Source: a virus. From it: DNA of 64,000 nt. Positions 44,581-59,864 of this stretch are shown piece after piece. The stretch covers positions 84,971 to 148,970 of the IMG/VR virus record IMGVR_UViG_3300028392_000034; one strand, given 5' to 3'. Numbering within the stretch: position 1 is the stretch's first letter; every line of letters begins with the position of its first letter. The notes under the pieces are model-generated. The model made no database searches. It had not been told where the DNA came from and saw only the letters and a program-made list of their open reading frames with translations. Made by a program: the position numbers and the translations under genes.

Positions 44581-45264
44581 ATGCGATTAAAAAGTTTTGG
44601 GTGTAGTTTCATACACGGAACAGAATTATCCGATCAAACATTTGTTGGCGTACGAGATATGCCAAGTCAATCCACCTGGCCAGCACACTTGGCACGTCAC
44701 CTCAACCGACAATATCGATGTTTTTCTCATGGCGGGTCTGGAAATTTACAAATATTAACACGAGTATTAGATCAAGCAGCCAGTAGCGACAGTTTAGATG
44801 TATTTGTAATTGGATGGACTTGGATTGAACGTTTTGATTATTACGTTGACAATCACGGTGATCAAGCCATAGACCCTTGGAATACTATAAGCCCAACGGA
44901 TCAAAGCACAGTTGCACAAATATACTATCGAGATCTACATTCTGAATTTCGTGATAAGTTAGTGAGTTTAACCAGCATAAAACTAGCAATCGATACCTTA
45001 CAACAACGCAATATACCGTTTATTATGACCAGTCTAGACGAGTTATTGTTTGATCAACGCTGGCATGTTTCGCCAGCCATATTGGATCTTCAGGCTTATA
45101 TACGACCTTTTATAACTGATTTCGATGGACAAAATTTCCTAGAGTGGACCAAACGCAACGGGCATCCGATTGGGTCTGGCGGCCACCCACTAGAAGCGGC
45201 ACACTGTGCCGCTGGTGATTATATGATCAAAGTTTTTGATAAACAAAATACAATCGATCATTAG
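44581..45264 (+). CDS. SGNH/GDSL-like protein
   Basis: FGCSFIHG, GGSGN, GWTW..R, GHP...H. Confidence 0.7.
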   Translation: MRLKSFGCSFIHGTELSDQTFVGVRDMPSQSTWPAHLARHLNRQYRCFSHGGSGNLQILTRVLDQAASSDSLDVFVIGWTWIERFDYYVDNHGDQAIDPWNTISPTDQSTVAQIYYRDLHSEFRDKLVSLTSIKLAIDTLQQRNIPFIMTSLDELLFDQRWHVSPAILDLQAYIRPFITDFDGQNFLEWTKRNGHPIGSGGHPLEAAHCAAGDYMIKVFDKQNTIDH

Positions 45265-45946
45265 TATCTTTTTTAAACTCTAACAATTTTAAATTGTATT
45301 TTTCAGCAAACTCTTTTACTATTTCAAATGTCCACGGAAATATTTCCACATACGGACCGGTCTTGTGTGTAATACCTGGATTGGCCCGCAAGTAAAATCG
45401 ACCGCCTGCATCCAGTATATCCACACATTTTTTAAAGCGACTTTCTATTTCATCACGATCGTTGAAGTTGATTGATCCTAGTGCAATAACAACATCATGG
45501 CTCCCCACATAATCCAAAATATCAACCATATAGTCAGCACAGTTGTTGTAAGGGTCGATACCAAGTAAATTGTTAATCCTACCCTTAAATGGGTGATACC
45601 CGCAACCAACGTCCAAAACGCTTCGAGGATTCTGTTTATTAATTTCATCTGCTAGTTCCCATCCTGTGTAATCATAATCGCCTGTTCTAGGCTTCCAAAT
45701 TTCGCCAAAAAAGCGATTGATATAACGCTCACTTAGGTCATGTGTTATATCCCGTACGGTGCCTATATACTCACAAGGCAAACTCAACTCTGCTTCCACA
45801 GCATCTTTGAACTTTCTATAACGTGCCGGAGTCCAGGGCAGGTCTTGCACAATAGTATCGGCGTCAATTACGATGTCGGCATACTTGGGCAAATTAAAGG
45901 CTGTAGTTAAATTTTCTTTAATCAGGTTAAAAATTTTGGTGTTCAT
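45227..45946 (-). CDS. Class I SAM methyltransferase with ACP-like N-terminal domain
   Basis: VLDVGCG, GIDP, ALGSINF; N-terminal 75 aa resemble an ACP helix pattern. Confidence 0.8.
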   Translation of the reverse strand: MNTKIFNLIKENLTTAFNLPKYADIVIDADTIVQDLPWTPARYRKFKDAVEAELSLPCEYIGTVRDITHDLSERYINRFFGEIWKPRTGDYDYTGWELADEINKQNPRSVLDVGCGYHPFKGRINNLLGIDPYNNCADYMVDILDYVGSHDVVIALGSINFNDRDEIESRFKKCVDILDAGGRFYLRANPGITHKTGPYVEIFPWTFEIVKEFAEKYNLKLLEFKKDTNDRLYFVYQKL

Positions 45947-46691
45947 TGATATCTTTCATTGTTTGTGTTGCAATATAAAACGCACATGTCCATTTATATG
46001 TGCCCATTTGTCTATTTTACTTTGCGGAAATCCTTGAAGTGTGGGATAATCTAATAAGTTAATTTTGTATCCTGTTGAATGCAGTATATCATCAAATAAT
46101 AAAATCAATTGTTCCATTGGAACATTAGGCTTGTTAGGTAAAACATTAAAATTAAATGTAAATAAAAATTGATCTTTTACTATATTCATTGCTAGATCAA
46201 TTTGTTTGGGCACCTCACTCCATTTAATGAAATGAAGGCTGTTCAGCGCCATTCCGCAAGTCCAATTCTTTGCATGTCCTCGACTGAAATCCTCATCAAA
46301 AAAATCAACAAAATCTTGTTTTGAAAATTCATTTGTATTAGGATCAAATCCCACAATGTTCGGGAACCAGTTTTTCCAAACACATTCTCCACAGCCTACG
46401 TCAATAACCGATTCGGGTTGATTGTTATATAACTGATCAATGTAATAGCAAATGTCTCGGAATCCTATTTTCAACCCTGATTCATAAAGGTATCTGGGAC
46501 TAATTTCAAGATCACCCACAGTATCAAACAGTCGATCATAGTGTTTTAATAATTTAGCATTCAGGTCCGGGAAATTTTTAAATGTTGTGTTCGGTGAATA
46601 GGGGTTAATTAACATAGTTTTTCCAGTTCAAGTTAAAAATTTTGGTGTTCATTAAAATTTCTTTAAAAAGGTTAAAAATTTTAGTGTTCAT
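45908..46691 (-). repeat. Three copies of the MTase 5' end ATGAACAC(C/T)AAAATTTTTAAC
   Basis: ATGs at 45946, 46652 and 46691. Confidence 0.85.
45956..46615 (-). CDS. Class I SAM methyltransferase-like protein
   Basis: VIDVGCG, GFDP, ALNSLHF. Confidence 0.75.
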   Translation of the reverse strand: MLINPYSPNTTFKNFPDLNAKLLKHYDRLFDTVGDLEISPRYLYESGLKIGFRDICYYIDQLYNNQPESVIDVGCGECVWKNWFPNIVGFDPNTNEFSKQDFVDFFDEDFSRGHAKNWTCGMALNSLHFIKWSEVPKQIDLAMNIVKDQFLFTFNFNVLPNKPNVPMEQLILLFDDILHSTGYKINLLDYPTLQGFPQSKIDKWAHINGHVRFILQHKQ

Positions 46692-46712
46692 ACGAAATTT
46701 TCCGTTCTTTGA

Positions 46713-46775
46713 TAAATAAATTTACAAGAGAGATAAAAAATTTTGCCTCCCTTGTAAATTCATCATAACTATTTA
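46713..46775. promoter_or_regulatory. Face-to-face TAAATA motifs flanking an inverted repeat
   Basis: + TAAATA 46713-46718; AATTTACAAG 46719-46728 / CTTGTAAATT 46751-46760; - TAAATA 46770-46775. Confidence 0.55.
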
Positions 46776-46785
46776 AGGAGATTAT

Positions 46786-47481
46786 ATGAACAGTAAAGAA
46801 TTTGTTGCCAAGATCGTGGCAGACAATCAAGCATTATTCCAAGCTAGTCAACACAATGTGAAAGCATACTTTGACAGCAAGCCTGCTCAAGAAGAGTTGG
46901 TCGAGCACTTTGTTGGCCGCATGGTCAACGAGCGTATGAACATGGTTGAAATCAGCCAAGCTATTGCAACAATGCCTGCTGATGCAGATCCAGTTGAATT
47001 GCAGTTGTTGACACAACAAGCACACGACGAAGCTGTTCATTTCCGCATGGTCAAAGAAGTAATTGAACACATCACTGGTGCACCGGTTGATGTTGAAGCT
47101 GCTATCGCCAAAGAAGCTGCCAAACCCACTGCCAAAGGCGCTGGTTTGTTGGCCAAATACGGCGCAGAAAATGATCCAGTTGCCTTGGCAGCTTACCAGT
47201 TGGTAGCCGAAGGCCGTGCCGAAGCAGTGTGGGATCAAATGGCCGACTGCATCGAAGATCCATTTATCTCCAAGAGCTATGCTAAAATTGCTCGCGACGA
47301 AGGCTTCCACAGCAAGATCGGTGCTCGCAAGTTAGAGCAGTTGGTTACAGACGCAGACGTTGCTGCCAAAGTTGAAACTTTGGTTGCCGCCATGCGTAAA
47401 GACTTGTATGAAATTTCATGCAAGAACACTGTTGCCGCAGATGCTGGTAAAGCATTGGTAGCAGACGCATACGGTTGGTAA
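46786..47481 (+). CDS. Ferritin-like diiron-carboxylate protein
   Basis: E...DEAVH...E...DEGFH; strong RBS TAAGGAG. Confidence 0.85.
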   Translation: MNSKEFVAKIVADNQALFQASQHNVKAYFDSKPAQEELVEHFVGRMVNERMNMVEISQAIATMPADADPVELQLLTQQAHDEAVHFRMVKEVIEHITGAPVDVEAAIAKEAAKPTAKGAGLLAKYGAENDPVALAAYQLVAEGRAEAVWDQMADCIEDPFISKSYAKIARDEGFHSKIGARKLEQLVTDADVAAKVETLVAAMRKDLYEISCKNTVAADAGKALVADAYGW

Positions 47482-47482
47482 T

Positions 47483-48034
47483 TTGAATATAGGATTAACA
47501 CAACGAATCCTATATCATAACGGTCAAGCGTATGATGCCACCCAGCATGGATGGTATTCATACTTACAGGGTCATACGCTTGTTCCAGTAGCAAATAGAA
47601 CAGATCAAGATTTTGAAGCAGTAGCACAAGAATTAGATGTATTAATCATCACAGGTGGAGACGACACTGCTCTTCGCCGCACAGTAGAATTAAAGTTAGC
47701 AGGACAAATGGCCTTGCGTAAAAAACCAGTTGTTGGTGTTTGTCATGGTTGTTTTTTGTTAACTGATGTATTAGGTGGTCGAGTAGAAGAAGTAGCAGGA
47801 CATCATAATACCACGCACAACGTAAATTACTTTGGTGAGCTAATAGCGGTCAATAGCTATCATACTTTGGCAATTAAAAAATTGCATCGGTCTGGTACGG
47901 TATTAGCCACTGACGCCGAAGGCAATTGTGAAGCGTGGATTGATGGTCAAACAGCAGGAGTGGTCTGGCACCCGGAACGTATGAAAACGCCTTGGTTACC
48001 AGATGAAATTTTAAATTTAACTTTTAAGGAATAA
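47483..48034 (+). CDS. Class I glutamine amidotransferase / peptidase C26
   Basis: ITGG, GVCHG, VNSYH, WHPE. Confidence 0.9.
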   Translation: MNIGLTQRILYHNGQAYDATQHGWYSYLQGHTLVPVANRTDQDFEAVAQELDVLIITGGDDTALRRTVELKLAGQMALRKKPVVGVCHGCFLLTDVLGGRVEEVAGHHNTTHNVNYFGELIAVNSYHTLAIKKLHRSGTVLATDAEGNCEAWIDGQTAGVVWHPERMKTPWLPDEILNLTFKE

Positions 48035-48035
48035 A

Positions 48036-49028
48036 ATGAAACGATTATTTGCAGCATTGTTTATTACCATGGCCGGAATGGGCGCATGTTCGGTATCCCA
48101 TGCTTGGGAACCTACAAAAACAGTCACAGTTGTTGTGGGCAACACACCCGGTGCCGGAAACGAGATAGCATTCCGTAAACTGGCCGAAATTGTGCAGAAG
48201 AAAAATCCCAAGTTTGTTTATGTGGTGGAAAATCGCCCGGGTGCCGACAGTGCAGTGGCCAACAACCATTTCATACAACAACCTGCAGATGGCTATACCA
48301 TCAACTTGCCAAGCCATATGAGCAGCTATGTCACCAATGATATTTGGGAAGCAAAGATTAAAAAATATCAATGGGACAGTTTTGTTGATGTATTGACCAT
48401 GGGCAAGAGTCCGCTGGTATTGGTTGCCAGCCCAAAAAGCACAGTAGAAACACCAGTTGACTTTGTGCGTTATCTTGCTAAGTCTACTCGGCCTATTAAT
48501 ATTGCTGTAGGCGGCGGAGCACATAGAACAGCATACGAATATTTGATTAACAAAGCACATGGCAATCGTGATCTGATCAAGCCAATCAAATTCAACGGTC
48601 CATTGCCAGCAGTGACCAGCGTGGCACAGTACGATGGAAAAGTAGGCACAGAGTTTGGTATTATGCCTATTGCTGTGGCTAGGCCATTGGTCGAAGCCGG
48701 CAAAGTCAAAGCCATTGGATTTACTGGTACACGCACAATGCCACAGTATCCGGATGTGCCACTGTTGAACACTGTGGCACCGGGAATTAATGTATACGCA
48801 GCTTGGTCAATTGAATTGCCCCCCAACACAGACAAAGAAATTGTTGCATGGTATCAGAAAACATTCAGTGCCGCAATTCGCAGCAAGGAATATGCCGAAT
48901 GGCGTGAGAAAAACGTAGTATTCTATGAAGAGGCCGAACTTACTCCAGCAGGTTTGAAAAAACAAATGGAAAGTTTACGTGAAACATTCTTGCCAGTGCT
49001 ACAACGAATTGATTTGAGTAAAGAATGA
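48036..49028 (+). CDS. Bug/TctC tripartite tricarboxylate transporter substrate-binding protein
   Basis: Signal peptide; VVENRPGA, PADGYT, GKVKAIG, PDVP. Confidence 0.9.
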   Translation: MKRLFAALFITMAGMGACSVSHAWEPTKTVTVVVGNTPGAGNEIAFRKLAEIVQKKNPKFVYVVENRPGADSAVANNHFIQQPADGYTINLPSHMSSYVTNDIWEAKIKKYQWDSFVDVLTMGKSPLVLVASPKSTVETPVDFVRYLAKSTRPINIAVGGGAHRTAYEYLINKAHGNRDLIKPIKFNGPLPAVTSVAQYDGKVGTEFGIMPIAVARPLVEAGKVKAIGFTGTRTMPQYPDVPLLNTVAPGINVYAAWSIELPPNTDKEIVAWYQKTFSAAIRSKEYAEWREKNVVFYEEAELTPAGLKKQMESLRETFLPVLQRIDLSKE

Positions 49029-49645
49029 AGTATATTTTTTGTGCCGGTGCTCCAGGCAGTAAATGGTCGAGCTTGATTAAAAATATCTACTATAGTCCCA
49101 GTATAGATCGTACTGACTATACCGAAGATAGAACCTACTACCACGATGCTTCGGGCAAATTAGACCTGATGCATCTTGGAGTATACTTTGATCCTGGAAT
49201 GGAGTTTGGCGATTTCTTTGACAAGCTCAGTGACTATACAAAAGAACAATGTGAAGCAGAGTTTGATCGGCCTTTTTCAGGCGAAGGTACACGTATTATC
49301 AAAAGTCATGTGTTTGCACACCATGTAGACTTTATTAAATCTACGTGGCCCGACTGTCCTATTATTTTAGCCCTGCGTGACAACGATGCTTGTCTGGGCT
49401 GGTGGGTGCGTTGCGGACATTTTAATATTACCTATCCCAGCTACGATAAGTATTATAAGAATTTGCGTGAAATGAGTAAAATCATTGATTGGCAAAATCG
49501 AGACATAGGCCGGGCATGGGCTAATTATGATGGCCTTGTTGTTCGCAACAATCAAGAACTAGCAGAAATATTAGGTATTCCACAACCGCCAGAAGAATAT
49601 CAGCAAGACTATATGGCGTCTGACCTAGAGGTAAAAGTAATATGA
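49025..49645 (+). CDS. Sulfotransferase-like P-loop protein
   Basis: AGAPGSKWS 5'-PSB-like loop, IIKSH, IILALRD. Confidence 0.55.
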   Translation: MKYIFCAGAPGSKWSSLIKNIYYSPSIDRTDYTEDRTYYHDASGKLDLMHLGVYFDPGMEFGDFFDKLSDYTKEQCEAEFDRPFSGEGTRIIKSHVFAHHVDFIKSTWPDCPIILALRDNDACLGWWVRCGHFNITYPSYDKYYKNLREMSKIIDWQNRDIGRAWANYDGLVVRNNQELAEILGIPQPPEEYQQDYMASDLEVKVI

Positions 49646-50328
49646 AAAATCAAGCAGATTATGACAGCAGTTGGCAGTGGTGTGTAGACCATAGTCGTTA
49701 TCATTTCAATGATTCTCGCAAGGATCAACCAGGTGAGTGGTTCCAAGTGTTGGGCCGCTTTGTAGGCACATGGTCAGATGAAGTCGCTCAAGCACAGGGC
49801 AAACCTATAACTTGGGCCACACGTAAATTTTACGGCAACGATGACAACACAGTTAGCCCTATGCTGGCACAAGAAGAAAATGATTTACGCACAACAGGTG
49901 CACCAGTAGACCTTGAGTTAACCGATGCGGTATTTGATATCAGTGCATATCCTACGTTGACTAGAATAAGTGAATACTTTGGGCTGGAAGATCCCAAGAT
50001 ACGTATGCATTATCAACAACCTGGTCAAATGTTTAATCTGCACATAGACAAATTACAAGAACGCTGTCCCGATGATCCAGAACAGGTAGTGCGTATGACC
50101 GTAATGTTAGATGATTGGCGCCCTGGACAATTCTATCTATTTGGTACTCACACATATTCGCATTGGCAAGCCGGAGATGTTCACATATTCGACTGGGCCA
50201 ATGTTCCACATGCCACGGCCAATGCCAGTCGCTACATGCGTCCAACACTACAGGTCACAGGACTTAAAACAGAGAAAACTCGTCAGATGATGGCCGTAGC
50301 AGGACCGTTGGTCAAATATCTAGTATGA
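49642..50328 (+). CDS. 2OG-Fe(II) / Asp-Asn beta-hydroxylase-like oxygenase
   Basis: QQPGQ...LHID, W..GD...FD, PHATAN, RPTL. Confidence 0.75.
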   Translation: MKNQADYDSSWQWCVDHSRYHFNDSRKDQPGEWFQVLGRFVGTWSDEVAQAQGKPITWATRKFYGNDDNTVSPMLAQEENDLRTTGAPVDLELTDAVFDISAYPTLTRISEYFGLEDPKIRMHYQQPGQMFNLHIDKLQERCPDDPEQVVRMTVMLDDWRPGQFYLFGTHTYSHWQAGDVHIFDWANVPHATANASRYMRPTLQVTGLKTEKTRQMMAVAGPLVKYLV

Positions 50329-50954
50329 AAAAACAGTTGTTGATTATATCAGGTCCACAAGGATCTGGTAATCATGTCTGGAGTAAAATACTTGCCTTGC
50401 ATCCAGCAGTGTATGGGTGGAAAGAATTGAATCAAACCTATTGGATCGGGCATGATCAAGAACCATTTGCTGACTGTTGGAACAACACCGATCTATTGAA
50501 AAATTTCGATTGGAATCAAAGCGATTATTATGTGACCGGTGTAAGTTGTCCTTACATGAACAATGGTGAACGCACTGTGCCCAATTTAATCGGCTTTGCA
50601 GCACAGGCCATGGGCTGTGGCATCAATGTACGATTTGCTATCATCGGGCGAGATCGTAATATCTTGTCGTTTCAAGAAACTCGGTTGCGTGGTGAGCCCA
50701 CATACAATATAGCTGTAGAACAGTATCAACGATTGGCCACATGGAATCCTGTATATCTCAGCTACGAGTTACTGCAATTGTATTCTTGTGACTATTTGAG
50801 GCAACTAAGTATTCTATTAGAGTTTCCAATAGATTACAACAATGCTTACATTGCGGAAATACTCCAAGATGACACTAATCAAAAATACTTTCAACCGGTA
50901 GCACATCATCCAACAGATGATTTAGCAAGACACACTTCAAGGAAATGGCGATGA
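50325..50954 (+). CDS. Sulfotransferase-like P-loop protein
   Basis: SGPQGSGNH...LALHP, IIGRD, LSYE. Confidence 0.6.
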   Translation: MKKQLLIISGPQGSGNHVWSKILALHPAVYGWKELNQTYWIGHDQEPFADCWNNTDLLKNFDWNQSDYYVTGVSCPYMNNGERTVPNLIGFAAQAMGCGINVRFAIIGRDRNILSFQETRLRGEPTYNIAVEQYQRLATWNPVYLSYELLQLYSCDYLRQLSILLEFPIDYNNAYIAEILQDDTNQKYFQPVAHHPTDDLARHTSRKWR

Positions 50955-51790
50955 CCCAACGTATATTGATAATGGGATTACCGGGTTCGGGCAAAACAAC
51001 ATTGGCTGCAGAACTCAAACGCTATTTAGAACTGCACGGAACAGCAGATCTAAGCAATGCTGAAATGTTGCCCATCACCGGATTCCGACCACACGTCACT
51101 TGGTTCAACGCCGACGATATTCGTCGCAAATACAACGATTGGGACTTCAGCAATGACGGACGTATTCGTCAAAGTATACGCATGTTTCAGTTCAGTATCG
51201 AGTCCGGTGGCGATTATGTTATCTGTGACTTTGTTGCACCCTTGGTCGAACAGCGTAACAATTTCAAAGCCGACTGGACTATCTGGGTCGATACAATTCG
51301 TGAAGGCCGTTATGCAGATACCAATGCAGCCTTTGTTGAACCTGAAGTATATGACTTCCGTGTCACGGAACAAAATGCAGAAAAGTGGGCTGAATTTATT
51401 GGCCAGCACATTATAGACCAGCGTCGCCGACCTGTGTTTGATTGGAAACGAGAAACTGTGCAGATGTTGGGTCGCTGGCAACCATGGCATGATGGACACC
51501 GTGCCTTGTTTGAACGATTGATTGCCAAGACCGGCCAGGTAGTTATTCAAATACGTGACGTTCAAGGTTGGCAAGGGTCAAATCCATTTGAAGTAGAACA
51601 GGTTAAAAAGTTTATTCGGCGTGATCTAGATCCTATCTATCAAGGACAATACGAAATACAAGTAGTGCCTAATATTGTTCACATAGGTTGGGGACGAGGT
51701 GTAGGTTACACTGCCGGAGAGGAAACTTTTGATGAATCAGTCACTGACATCAGTGCTACAAAGATTCGTAAAGAGTTAGGATTAAAATAA
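50951..51790 (+). CDS. cysC: Adenylylsulfate kinase-like domain fused to an HxGH nucleotidyltransferase domain
   Basis: GLPGSGKTT, NADDIR, FVAP; then GRWQPWHDGH, ISATKIR. Confidence 0.8.
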   Translation: MTQRILIMGLPGSGKTTLAAELKRYLELHGTADLSNAEMLPITGFRPHVTWFNADDIRRKYNDWDFSNDGRIRQSIRMFQFSIESGGDYVICDFVAPLVEQRNNFKADWTIWVDTIREGRYADTNAAFVEPEVYDFRVTEQNAEKWAEFIGQHIIDQRRRPVFDWKRETVQMLGRWQPWHDGHRALFERLIAKTGQVVIQIRDVQGWQGSNPFEVEQVKKFIRRDLDPIYQGQYEIQVVPNIVHIGWGRGVGYTAGEETFDESVTDISATKIRKELGLK

Positions 51791-51794
51791 CATC

Positions 51795-52001
51795 ATGAAT
51801 GATACGCCAGTTCGTAGCCTTGCCAAGGCAGTTAGCTGGCGTATCACTGGCACTATAGATACTTTCCTTATCAGTTGGTTGATTACAGGACAGGCACTGC
51901 TAGCCAGTGGTATTGCCTTGACAGAAATCTTGACCAAAGTAGGGTTATTTTGGGCGCATGAAAGAGTGTGGAACAGGGTCAAATGGGGCAGGACCAACTA
52001 A
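51795..52001 (+). CDS. DUF2061 membrane protein
   Basis: RSLAKAVSWR...HERVW. Confidence 0.85.
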   Translation: MNDTPVRSLAKAVSWRITGTIDTFLISWLITGQALLASGIALTEILTKVGLFWAHERVWNRVKWGRTN

Positions 52002-52030
52002 ATATTAGTATCTAACAAGGTACTGATATT
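51999..52030 (+). promoter_or_regulatory. Late promoter overlapping a 12-bp hairpin that hides the endolysin RBS
   Basis: TAAATA 51999-52004; AATATTAGTATC-TAACAA-GGTACTGATATT then ATG. Confidence 0.7.
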
Positions 52031-52642
52031 ATGCAAATTACACCACAACAGCTACAACAATGCATTGGCAATAACCCATATTTAGAGCACTGGGCCGAAG
52101 CCTTAAACAAAATACTACCAGATTATGAAATCAACACACCACAGCGTGTGGCTGCTTTTATTGCTCAATCGGCACACGAAAGTGGTAACTTTACTGCACT
52201 ACACGAAAACTTGAACTATCGGGCCGAAACACTGAGAAAAATTTTCCCCAAGTATTTCACTGACTCCAGTGCAGAACAGTTTGCTCATCAACCCGAAATG
52301 ATTGCCAATCGGGTCTATGCCAACAGAATGGGCAATGGTGACGAAGCGTCAGGTGACGGCTTCCGTTACTGCGGTCGTGGACTTATTCAGTTGACCGGCA
52401 AAGCCAACTATCAAGCCTTTGCCGACAGTTTAGAAATGCCAGTAGAAGCTGTTCCTGACTTCTTACAAACATTTGAAGGTGCTATACAAAGTGCCTGCTG
52501 GTTCTGGGAAAGCAACAACTTGAATCAATACGCCGACTCGGGTGATATCCTGACAATGACCAAACGCATCAACGGTGGCACCATTGGCCTAGAAGATCGC
52601 CAAAAACATTATAACCACGCATTACTAGTGTTCGGAGCTTGA
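52031..52642 (+). CDS. GH19 endolysin
   Basis: FIAQSAHES, ENLNY, GRGLIQLTG, TKRINGG. Confidence 0.93.
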   Translation: MQITPQQLQQCIGNNPYLEHWAEALNKILPDYEINTPQRVAAFIAQSAHESGNFTALHENLNYRAETLRKIFPKYFTDSSAEQFAHQPEMIANRVYANRMGNGDEASGDGFRYCGRGLIQLTGKANYQAFADSLEMPVEAVPDFLQTFEGAIQSACWFWESNNLNQYADSGDILTMTKRINGGTIGLEDRQKHYNHALLVFGA

Positions 52643-54248: not shown

Positions 54249-54304
54249 TTGTAATCACTCCAGGCAAACAGTATAATTAATATGCTGTTTGCTTTTTTTT
54301 TGAC

Positions 54305-59090: not shown

Positions 59091-59864
59091 ATGAATTATC
59101 TTGTAATATATCCTGGGCGCTTCCATCCTTTTCACCTGGGCCACATGGCCAGTTACGATTGGCTGACCAACAAGTTTGGCGAAAACAGTGTATATATTGC
59201 CAGTAGTAGTGTGCAGGCCGCAGACACAAGTCCGTTTAGTTTCGGTGACAAAGTCGCAATGATGACCAAACTGGGTGTTCCGCCCGGGCATGTGGTCAAT
59301 GTCAAAAACCCGTACCAAGCTGTAGAAATTACATCCGGCTTGTCGGCCGAAGAAAAGGCCGACACAGCACTGATATTTGCTGTCAGCGCCAAGGATGCCG
59401 AACGTTTTAACTTTGCTCCTAAAAAAGACGGATCTGCTAGTTACTTACAACCTTTGCCCGACAACGAAAAAGGCATGATGCCCATGACTCAACATGGGTA
59501 TGTTGTGGTGACTCCTACTGTGAACTTTCGAGTACGAGGTGTAGATGCCAATAGTGCTAGCCAAATTCGCAAATTGTATTTGGATGGCAACGATAGTGAT
59601 CGTGATCAAATTATAACAGACCTATATGGCACACCAGATCCAGAGCTACGAGACATGTTTGATCAACGATTAGGAGTAAATCAACCTGAAGAAGGTGTCA
59701 TATACGGACAGGAAGCAGTATTCGCCGGCGATAATCCTGTGAGTGTGATGCGTGAGCACAAGTTGGCTCGAATACAAGAAAATATTCAATGGCTAAAGAG
59801 CAAAATCAAAACCGTTAAGGACGGTCAAGACTATATTGACGAACGCAAGACTAGGAAAAAATAG
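59091..59864 (+). CDS. Cytidylyltransferase-like (HxGH) protein
   Basis: YPGRFHPFHLGH, SASQIR; TAAATA 7 nt upstream. Confidence 0.85.
   Translation: MNYLVIYPGRFHPFHLGHMASYDWLTNKFGENSVYIASSSVQAADTSPFSFGDKVAMMTKLGVPPGHVVNVKNPYQAVEITSGLSAEEKADTALIFAVSAKDAERFNFAPKKDGSASYLQPLPDNEKGMMPMTQHGYVVVTPTVNFRVRGVDANSASQIRKLYLDGNDSDRDQIITDLYGTPDPELRDMFDQRLGVNQPEEGVIYGQEAVFAGDNPVSVMREHKLARIQENIQWLKSKIKTVKDGQDYIDERKTRKK

Follow-up and report, generated by a model that had tools for sequence, protein, structure and literature searches.

A recurrent phage gene cassette with sulfotransferase-fold proteins, a probable 2-oxoglutarate-Fe(II) oxygenase, an APS-kinase-like fusion, and a solute-binding protein

The DNA analyzed here (the window) is a stretch of 64,000 nucleotides, positions 84,971 to 148,970 of the viral contig IMGVR_UViG_3300028392_000034 in IMG/VR, and its subject is a group of eight plus-strand genes, g1 to g8, at window positions 46786-52001, together with two divergent methyltransferase genes, MTa and MTb (Table 1). 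The complete contig comprises 148,970 bp with a CheckV completeness of 43% and carries T4-type genes, which suggests that it represents part of the genome of a very large lake phage. An earlier note made from the sequence alone (the original prediction) had described eight tightly coupled genes, and all of them are present in the open reading frame (ORF) listing of the window, separated by gaps of no more than 4 nt or overlapping by 4-10 nt (in order from g1 to g8: gaps of 1 and 1 nt, overlaps of 4, 4, 4, and 10 nt, and a gap of 4 nt between g7 and g8). The same gene families were found together in many viral loci and in many different orders, and they may form a mobile cassette by which phages import and tailor a small compound.

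Table 1. Genes and other features of the cassette and its surroundings (window positions).
Feature	Position	Strand	Length	Description
MTa	45227-45946	-	239 aa	Class I S-adenosylmethionine (SAM) methyltransferase, motif LDVGCG
MTb	45956-46615	-	219 aa	Second methyltransferase, distant MTa paralogue, motif IDVGCG
Divergent intergenic region	46616-46785		170 nt	TAAATA at 46713-46718, AAGGAG at 46775-46780, two remnants of the MTa 5' end
g1	46786-47481	+	231 aa	Ferritin-like diiron carboxylate protein
g2	47483-48034	+	183 aa	Stand-alone class I glutamine amidotransferase/peptidase C26-type hydrolase, TTG start
g3	48036-49028	+	330 aa	Secreted TctC/Bug-type solute-binding protein of the tripartite tricarboxylate transporter (TTT) family
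g4	49025-49645	+	206 aa	Sulfotransferase-fold protein 1 (predicted), core cassette gene
g5	49642-50328	+	228 aa	Probable 2-oxoglutarate (2OG)-Fe(II) oxygenase
g6	50325-50954	+	209 aa	Sulfotransferase-fold protein 2 (predicted)
g7	50945-51790	+		APS-kinase-like P-loop domain (residues 1 to ~160) and NMN-adenylyltransferase-like HxGH domain (~170-281)
g8	51795-52001	+	68 aa	Small DUF2061 membrane protein
Second TAAATA	51999-52004			Overlaps the g8 stop codon
Endolysin gene	52031-52642			GH19-type
Terminator-like hairpin	54262-54294			First strong one, 3' of a GTA-holin-like gene and two small ORFs
Cytidylyltransferase-like gene	59091-59864		257 aa	PF01467, 2.9e-7

The distribution of the cassette was investigated in IMG/VR loci sampled through g4, using the best 80 of at least 480 loci (g4 identity of 63-74%). 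The most constant partner was g5, which occurred in 78 of the 80 and nearly always directly 3' of g4, followed by the divergent MTa (60) and g6 (50). All of g1, g2, g3, g7, and g8 are optional members: g2 was present in 36 loci and g1 in 35 (both in 34), the TctC gene g3 in 28, the APS-kinase gene g7 in 22, and g8 in 8, while MTb was detected in 11. As many as 39 gene orders were observed. The exact eight-gene order is conserved at two loci (L102 and L163) and dozens of other relatives carry shuffled versions, for example, behind a divergent MTa, g1 g2 g7 cupin g6 g4 g5 or g1 g6 g2 g4 g5. The genes flanking the cassette in this phage were present in only 18 of the 80 loci; the other 62, of which 13 possess g7, lack them. 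Because the same families stay together across 39 orders and differing flanks, shared function is the simplest explanation of their association. Two additional proteins recur in the neighbourhood, a Cupin_2 protein of 222 aa encoded between g7 and g6 in 16 loci (L097:6696-7367) and a protein of ~200 aa with a HELVH zincin-like motif beside g5, on either strand, in 49 loci (L097:9489-10142). A blastn search of 50,697 phage records with the 5.2-kb region as query gave no match.

When loci were sampled through g7 instead (the best 80 of at least 589 IMG/VR loci), g7 was almost always alone or with g8, which lay 3' of it in 30 of the 80; g4 or g6 accompanied it in fewer than 10, g1 and g2 in one, and the neighbouring genes were highly variable. 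The loose mosaic suggested by this sample was rejected, since the range of g7 extends far beyond that of the cassette, which biases the sample; sampling through g4 reversed the picture. Thus, g7 is a gene of more general nature, often recruited by the cassette, and the copies within distant cassettes are only 42-55% identical to that of the window. Where g7 occurs in phages lacking the cassette, genes nearby encode, among others, a carbamoyltransferase, an FkbM methyltransferase, a GT2 glycosyltransferase, and a radical SAM enzyme (L005:5975-7456, L043:4057-4794, L025:7216-8004, L001:138-1127), and the g7 position in those phages is, as judged from the genes found there, a general hot-spot for decoration-type genes.

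The two P-loop-like proteins, g4 and g6, were modelled with AlphaFold from alignments of 43 and 41 sequences (pLDDT of 80.8 and 82.3, respectively), and their folds were ranked by an all-against-representatives structural search (VIA), with Foldseek searches of PDB and BFVD in addition. The first seven structural matches of g4 were all sulfotransferases (TPST1, a tick TPST, TPST2, 4gox, Stf1, Stf9, and 3rnl), with a Z score of 10.3 against TPST1 (159 aa aligned, root-mean-square deviation 3.7) and of 8.6 against 4gox. For g6, the first 11 matches were all sulfotransferases, headed by the olefin-synthase sulfotransferase domain 4gox (Z 11.1, 167 aa aligned), TPST1 (10.8), and TPST2 (10.5). Stf1 and Stf9 belong to the top group of both proteins and NDST1 to that of g6 only. 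In Foldseek searches of PDB, g6 matched SULT/TPST entries with probabilities of 0.98-1.00 and g4 gave weak matches (best E 2.4e-3); BFVD also returned many sulfotransferases for g6, and the BFVD and ESM Atlas neighbours of both proteins are viral 'sulfotransferase family' clusters. Neither P-loop-like protein thus models as a kinase. The sulfotransferase-like calls of the original prediction stand at the level of fold, which ranks above all kinases, but both proteins lie below every Pfam sulfotransferase cut-off and their loops are atypical. According to these models, g4 and g6 have a sulfotransferase fold, with 3'-phosphoadenosine 5'-phosphosulfate (PAPS) as putative donor and sulfotransfer as putative activity.

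The conserved residues of the two families are in part reminiscent of sulfotransferases. The Lys or Arg of the PKSGTT/PRSGTT loops of known enzymes is catalytic; the invariant loop of g4 is G8-A-P-G-S-K13-W-S-S, in which the Lys stands two positions later than in PKSGTT, and that of g6 is G10-P-Q-G-S-G-N-H17, which has neither Lys nor Arg, with K21 in the next helix. An Arg-Asp after the central strand is kept in both (in g4, the nearly invariant R118 after strand 113-117; in g6, the invariant R109-D110 after strand 101-108). In addition, g4 has an invariant K93-S94-H95 at the end of strand 89-94, which we take to resemble the catalytic KTH of cytosolic sulfotransferases. The possibility that g4 and g6 are recent duplicates was ruled out, as their similarity in BLASTP and hhalign comparisons is significant nowhere outside the N-terminal loop. 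Both families are large in the protein collection (4057 relatives of g4 and 1107 of g6) and almost entirely viral or metagenomic. Among 185,579 bacterial species genomes, only three relatives of g4 were found, all on contigs of metagenome-assembled genomes (L177 and L178 from Haliscomenobacter, L179 from Terrimicrobiaceae; 47-67% identity), and no bacterial model cluster was found; these contigs are probably phage contigs binned with bacterial genomes.

The constant partner of g4 is predicted to be an oxygenase. In g5, H134, D136, H190, and R200 are invariant in 43 sequences and form an HxD...H-x9-R pattern, which makes it a probable 2OG-Fe(II) oxygenase and agrees with the hydroxylase call made previously. 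That call found no counterpart at the family level: g5 itself had no Pfam match, TauD included, at the thresholds used, only 2-3 of the 43 members gave faint Asp_Arg_Hydrox or 2OG-FeII_Oxy_3 matches, the alignment of the HxD region to a 2OG-FeII_Oxy_3 protein from a phage did not reach significance, and a profile search against PDB sequences returned no informative relative.

In g7, the fusion of an adenosine 5'-phosphosulfate (APS) kinase with an HxGH domain was recognized correctly. The N-terminal domain scored above the cut-off for PF01583 (APS_kinase; 26.3 bits vs. 21.1), and a profile of 25 sequences matched the APS kinase 2yvu (3.7e-8), followed by 2gks, 7yq0, and PAPSS1 kinase domains; invariant residues comprise GLPGSGKT, D57, R60, W66-D67-F68, and F96-V-A-P99. 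The score for NCBIfam TIGR00455 (apsK) is far below the cut-off (16.1 bits vs. 138.7), so g7 is a distant member of the family for which APS is the presumed substrate. Invariant GRWQPWHDGH and ISATKIR motifs characterize the C-terminal domain, whose best PDB profile matches are NadM and archaeal nicotinamide mononucleotide (NMN) adenylyltransferase (NMNAT; 2qjt, 1.2e-6; 1f9a, 7.8e-6); with ~110 aa vs. ~170 for the family, it scored 23.3 bits against TIGR01527 (cut-off 181). The protein also matches phrog_10255 (8.6e-44). Kinase-only forms of 145-187 aa were found inside the cassette at six loci (including L117:9926-10369, L123:9288-9725, L134:9909-10364, and L141:9157-9720) and had no HxGH domain within 8 kb; therefore, the fusion is not obligatory. 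A NadR-like role in nicotinamide adenine dinucleotide (NAD) salvage, which was first raised by the NMNAT-like domain and a NADAR neighbour in Sanovirus phages, is disfavoured because the kinase domain matches APS kinases and not ribosylnicotinamide kinases; kinase-only forms within the cassette and the lack of NAMPT in the record also speak against it. NAD salvage is possible in phages carrying g7 alone. A second cytidylyltransferase-like gene lies further downstream in the window (Table 1) and a third outside it (G000:16831-17118).

Most of the remaining domain assignments also hold. The protein encoded by g3 scored 65.6 bits against PF03401 (TctC; cut-off 27, E 6.6e-18) and begins with the signal sequence MKRLFAALFITMAGMGACSVSHA. 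The idea that the phage has its own solute receptor is thus substantiated by a secreted TctC, by the recurrence of TTT components, and by the permease TctA in variants of the cassette, but neither this 149-kb record nor four related ones yielded a TctA. At 19 loci, the g3 slot between g2 and g4 holds TctA (PF01970, 1.4e-83) and a divergent TctC-like protein, as in the order g1 g2 TctA TctC-like g4 g5 g6 g7 behind a divergent MTa; the TctC-like protein is secreted, comprises 351 aa, and aligns with g3 at its N-terminus (e.g., L117:6949-8004, with TctA at L117:5485-6939). In g1, E49, E82xxH85, E142, and E172xxH175 are kept in homologues down to 20-26% identity. These homologues match DUF455 (9 of 21), PaaA_PaaC (7), Rubrerythrin (5), AurF (4), and MiaE (2), and g1 matches symerythrin at 1.5e-4, so that, by its sequence signature, it is a ferritin-like diiron protein to which no specific subfamily is assigned. 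As a class I glutamine amidotransferase (GATase), g2 exceeds the Pfam cut-offs for GATase (43.4 bits, 4e-11) and Peptidase_C26 (52 bits, 1e-13) and has an intact Cys-His-Glu triad (GVC87HG, WH163PE165); its best NCBIfam match is gamma-glutamyl-CDP-amidate hydrolase, at 48 bits vs. a cut-off of 250, far from equivalog level. The identity of g8 as a DUF2061 protein is clear (PF09834, 74.5 bits vs. 23.1, 8.9e-21). Single-sequence PDB searches of g1, g2, and g7 were weak.

Links between similar genes and sulfate activation were also found outside the cassette. Cultured Sanovirus/Salvovirus phages of Stenotrophomonas and Xylella (Casjensviridae) have a g7 homologue with 34-39% identity and, two genes away, a sulfotransferase-like protein of 192 aa, which scored 26.2 bits against Sulfotransfer_4 (PF17784, cut-off 22.8) in Stenotrophomonas phage Bhz60 and 19.5 bits in Xylella phage Bacata; its PRSRS and HRPAREVAHS are presumably PAPS-binding-type motifs. 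In both phages, this protein, a NADAR-domain protein, and the APS-kinase/HxGH fusion form a trio 3' of a MazG-like gene (L081:4978-6741 in Bhz60, L096:2478-4241 in Bacata). Comparison of the 192-aa protein with the g4 and g6 profiles by hhalign was not significant, so the sulfotransferase link in these phages rests on its own Pfam match; the cassette cupin has no similarity to the 'cysteine dioxygenase' of Sanovirus. The closest plasmid homologues of g8 (53-54% identity), on Mesorhizobium symbiosis plasmids, are located between a NodH-type sulfotransferase gene and cysD/cysN. Ralstonia phage phiRSL1 has a stand-alone APS-kinase-like gene (PF01583, 2.7e-15), followed by genes for a TET-associated glycosyltransferase (PF20691), an APH-type kinase fusion, and a sugar nucleotidyltransferase (L095:4001-7756), which hints that the APS-kinase-like genes of some phages belong to DNA or glycan modification modules.

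Upstream of g1, the two divergent methyltransferases that had been noted are indeed class I enzymes on the opposite strand. Methyltransf_23 was matched by 22 of 25 members of the MTa family and Methyltransf_25 by 19; MTb matches Methyltransf_23 at E 0.0033 and, around motif I, MTa itself (BLASTP, 1e-6). The first 40 nt of MTa (MNTKIFNLIKENL on the minus strand) are present in three copies with 73-100% identity (45907-45946, 46613-46652, and 46652-46691), two of them short remnants between MTb and g1, one of which overlaps the start of MTb. Such copies may have been left behind when cassettes were repeatedly exchanged through recombination at the start of a methyltransferase gene.

With regard to expression, the strong ribosome-binding site that had been proposed was readily recognized as AAGGAG, 5 nt ahead of the ATG of g1. 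A late-type TAAATA motif is also present as described, 67 nt upstream of g1, but the hexamer is no more common in the window than expected by chance (39 vs. ~50) and is therefore only a weak promoter hint. No terminator-like hairpin was found between the eight genes in a sequence scan of the region, so they are reasonably regarded as one transcription unit. The first strong hairpin lies well beyond g8 (Table 1), and the second TAAATA precedes the endolysin gene by 27 nt; transcription may read through from the cassette into the lysis genes, which may also have a late promoter of their own.

Each part of the cassette has a recognizable fold or motif, the set recurs in shuffled orders, and an APS-kinase-type gene is independently linked with sulfotransferase-like genes and with DUF2061. 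The reading that we favour, to which we would give slightly less than an even chance, is that of a mobile and modular cassette with which phages take up a small carboxylate-bearing compound during infection and modify it; its chemistry, including every step, their order, the donor, and the substrate, is what we infer from the gene set. In such a scheme, secreted g3 would capture the solute and pass it to a TctA/TctB permease, which would be that of the host here and phage-encoded in some variants. In the cytoplasm, the compound would be hydroxylated by g5 and, where present, by the diiron protein g1, and g4 and g6 would place sulfate from PAPS onto those hydroxyls, PAPS being made from host APS by the APS-kinase-like domain of g7. 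The divergent methyltransferases might then cap another position, and g2, which is paired with g1, might supply or remove an amide or gamma-glutamyl group.

The position of g5 directly 3' of g4 fits hydroxylation followed by sulfation, and the APS-kinase-like gene is repeatedly embedded in the cassette (22 of the 80 loci). For the earlier proposal that the genes make PAPS and sulfate a hydroxylated acceptor, the folds, g7, and the g4-g5 pairing are favourable, but the donor loop is atypical, and the proposal is supported in part. That the pathway is self-contained was not borne out, since the search for an ATP sulfurylase was negative; the HxGH domain, which is absent from kinase-only variants, is NMNAT-like. 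A number of observations weigh against the favoured reading. Kinases follow close behind the sulfotransferases in the structural rankings, starting at about Z 7.5 for g4 and Z 8.7 for g6, i.e., ~1.5-3 Z below the best match. At the sequence level, g4 reached 18.5-19.1 bits against Sulfotransfer_3, below the cut-off of 27, g6 had no Pfam, NCBIfam, or PDB-sequence match, and profiles of both against PDB sequences found no sulfotransferase; the loops GAPGSKWS of g4 and GPQGSGNH of g6 are without Lys or Arg at the usual 5'-phosphosulfate loop position. No ATP-sulfurylase family or structure was among the matches for g7 residues 165-281. Of the 53 g4 loci flanked on either side by 3 kb or more, only 16 had g7, most of the at least 589 phage loci with g7 lack the cassette, and one 80%-complete relative carries g7 without any member of the g4 or g6 families. 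Finally, DUF2061 is not located beside sulfur genes in three other plasmid lineages.

Several alternative explanations were considered. The same chemistry might modify a macromolecule, such as a virion or host protein (e.g., on tyrosine or a hydroxy-amino-acid), an envelope glycan, or phage DNA, with TctC/TctA serving a separate uptake function. This is suggested by the structural searches, in which g4 and g6 best matched tyrosylprotein sulfotransferases, by the prolyl and Asp/Asn hydroxylase-type models among the faint matches of the g5 family, by the glycan-decorating genes near g7 in other phages (FkbM and CmcI-type methyltransferases, GT2, carbamoyltransferase), by the glycosyltransferase and sugar nucleotidyltransferases next to the phiRSL1 gene, and by the NADAR, MazG, and annotated DNA methyltransferase neighbours in Sanovirus. 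However, the TTT components, either TctC alone or TctA with TctC, hold a fixed slot between g2 and g4, which is hard to explain by an unrelated uptake function; moreover, MTa and MTb have only generic small-molecule-type signatures and no candidate peptide substrate gene was seen, and we consider a macromolecular acceptor unlikely. Still less probable is a scavenging function, in which the TTT system would import an organosulfate, sulfonate, or gamma-glutamyl compound and the sulfotransferase-fold proteins would work in reverse towards 3'-phosphoadenosine 5'-phosphate (PAP), the oxygenases would also release or capture sulfur, g2 would free nitrogen, and g7 would feed sulfur assimilation in sulfate-poor fresh water. 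Transport genes embedded in the cassette would fit this function, as would the near-core g7, which occurs without the cassette in most relatives like a stand-alone metabolic booster; the samples are mostly freshwater as inferred from the IMG/VR sample series, and phage solute-binding proteins such as PstS are nutrient-uptake genes. On the other hand, the third most conserved gene encodes a methyltransferase (MTa), which has no obvious role in breakdown, g5 has no TauD match at the Pfam thresholds used, and PAPS reductase was not found in this record or the four related ones.

Two further possibilities appear to have a slim chance. One is a donor other than PAPS, i.e., another group activated on a 3'-phosphorylated nucleotide, after the manner of the Campylobacter O-methyl-phosphoramidate pathway, with g4 and g6 as its transferases. 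The gamma-glutamyl-CDP-amidate hydrolase match covers the full length of g2, with the next family at 31 bits, g7 joins a nucleotidyltransferase to an APS-kinase-like domain, two methyltransferases are adjacent, and g4 and g6 are without the usual PAPS-loop Lys/Arg, all of which would fit such a donor. The g2 score is nevertheless far under its cut-off, more than half of the cassettes lack g1 and g2 but retain g4, g5, and g6, kinase-only g7 forms exist, and the DUF2061 link points to true sulfate activation; in addition, no glutamine-kinase-type gene was found among the recurrent cassette members scanned, and no phosphoramidate-pathway family was among the 25 NCBIfam matches listed for g7. The other, to which we attach equally little weight, is that there is no common pathway and that unrelated accessory genes have piled up in a hypervariable island of T4-like aquatic phages, co-transcribed by position. 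The genes adjoining g7 differ greatly between close relatives, the MTa remnants indicate repeated recombination at this site, and five of the eight genes are optional. Such an accumulation, however, would not be expected to keep the same families together through 39 orders and in the 62 loci without the flanks of this phage, to preserve the g4-g5 pair almost everywhere, or to be paralleled by the sulfotransferase/APS-kinase association of the unrelated Casjensviridae phages.

Sulfotransferase-like genes are regularly annotated in aquatic phages, and a study of OM43 phages states that their role "remains unclear" (PMC10580990). The cassette provides these genes with a testable context, i.e., a near-invariant oxygenase partner, a methyltransferase, a sulfate-donor gene, and an uptake receptor that might serve as bait in a search for the substrate. 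Given the size of the g4 and g6 families and the occurrence of the cassette in at least 480 IMG/VR loci, its function, once established, would hold for a large share of big freshwater phages. A virus-borne small-molecule pathway, in which phage-supplied TTT uptake of a carboxylate leads to a hydroxylated, sulfated, and methylated metabolite serving as signal, inhibitor, or protectant, is a more tentative proposal that we think rather doubtful; in it, the kinase-nucleotidyltransferase fusion might even produce a new donor similar to PAPS. Should the product prove to be a small molecule, the cassette would represent a rare virus-borne biosynthetic or tailoring cluster, carried by hundreds to thousands of phage genomes, and would add sulfation to the ways in which phages rewire host metabolism. 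As the original prediction had stated, no characterized phage pathway of this composition is known; a literature search turned up no description of this gene combination in phages.

The nearest analogues are bacterial tailoring sets that combine a hydroxylase and a sulfotransferase with an APS kinase of their own, such as CyrI (2OG-Fe hydroxylase), CyrJ (sulfotransferase), and CyrN (APS kinase) of cylindrospermopsin and SxtN and SxtO of saxitoxin. In these clusters, as in the cassette, methyltransferases and transport genes stand alongside; however, they are bacterial, act on a polyketide or alkaloid core, and export the product, whereas the phage cassette is without a scaffold-building enzyme, has an uptake receptor, and encodes sulfotransferase-like proteins of ~200 aa that fall below Pfam cut-offs. 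The rhizobial NodH-NodP/NodQ system (CysD/CysN-CysC) likewise places a sulfotransferase beside its own sulfate-activation genes, and its methyl and carbamoyl decorations have parallels in the genes that adjoin g7 in other phages, but it possesses a full ATP sulfurylase and a chitooligosaccharide acceptor, and no sulfurylase was found here. Compared to TPST1/2 and the sulfotransferase domains of olefin synthase and CurM type, g4 and g6 have Z scores of 8.6-11.1 over 155-167 residues and share the N-terminal strand-loop-helix and the Arg-Asp after a central strand (R118 in g4, R109-D110 in g6); they differ in having only 11-14% identity, no sequence-level match, a loop without Arg or Lys at the customary position, and 70-130 fewer residues.

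For g7, the domain order matches that of metazoan PAPS synthase, an N-terminal APS kinase fused to a C-terminal ATP sulfurylase, in that the APS-kinase-like domain precedes a member of the nucleotidyltransferase superfamily with an HxxH-type motif, although its short C-terminal domain resembles NadM and archaeal NMNAT, not ATP sulfurylase, and is missing in some variants. A similar combination is found in Cj1415-Cj1420 of Campylobacter jejuni, where the O-methyl-phosphoramidate pathway includes an APS-kinase-like 3'-kinase (Cj1415), a cytidylyltransferase (Cj1416), an amidotransferase-like hydrolase (Cj1417, whose family is the best NCBIfam match of g2, far below the cut-off), and two methyltransferases; unlike this pathway, the cassette showed no glutamine kinase among the members scanned, its g1/g2 pair is optional, and the nucleotidyltransferase of the Campylobacter pathway presumably has a fold different from that of the g7 C-terminal domain. 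With respect to uptake, g3 is comparable to the PstS of cyanophages, by which the phage supplies a secreted solute receptor that docks onto a membrane transporter, but g3 belongs to the TctC family, is encoded within an enzyme cassette, and is replaced in some variants by a set that brings its own TctA permease.

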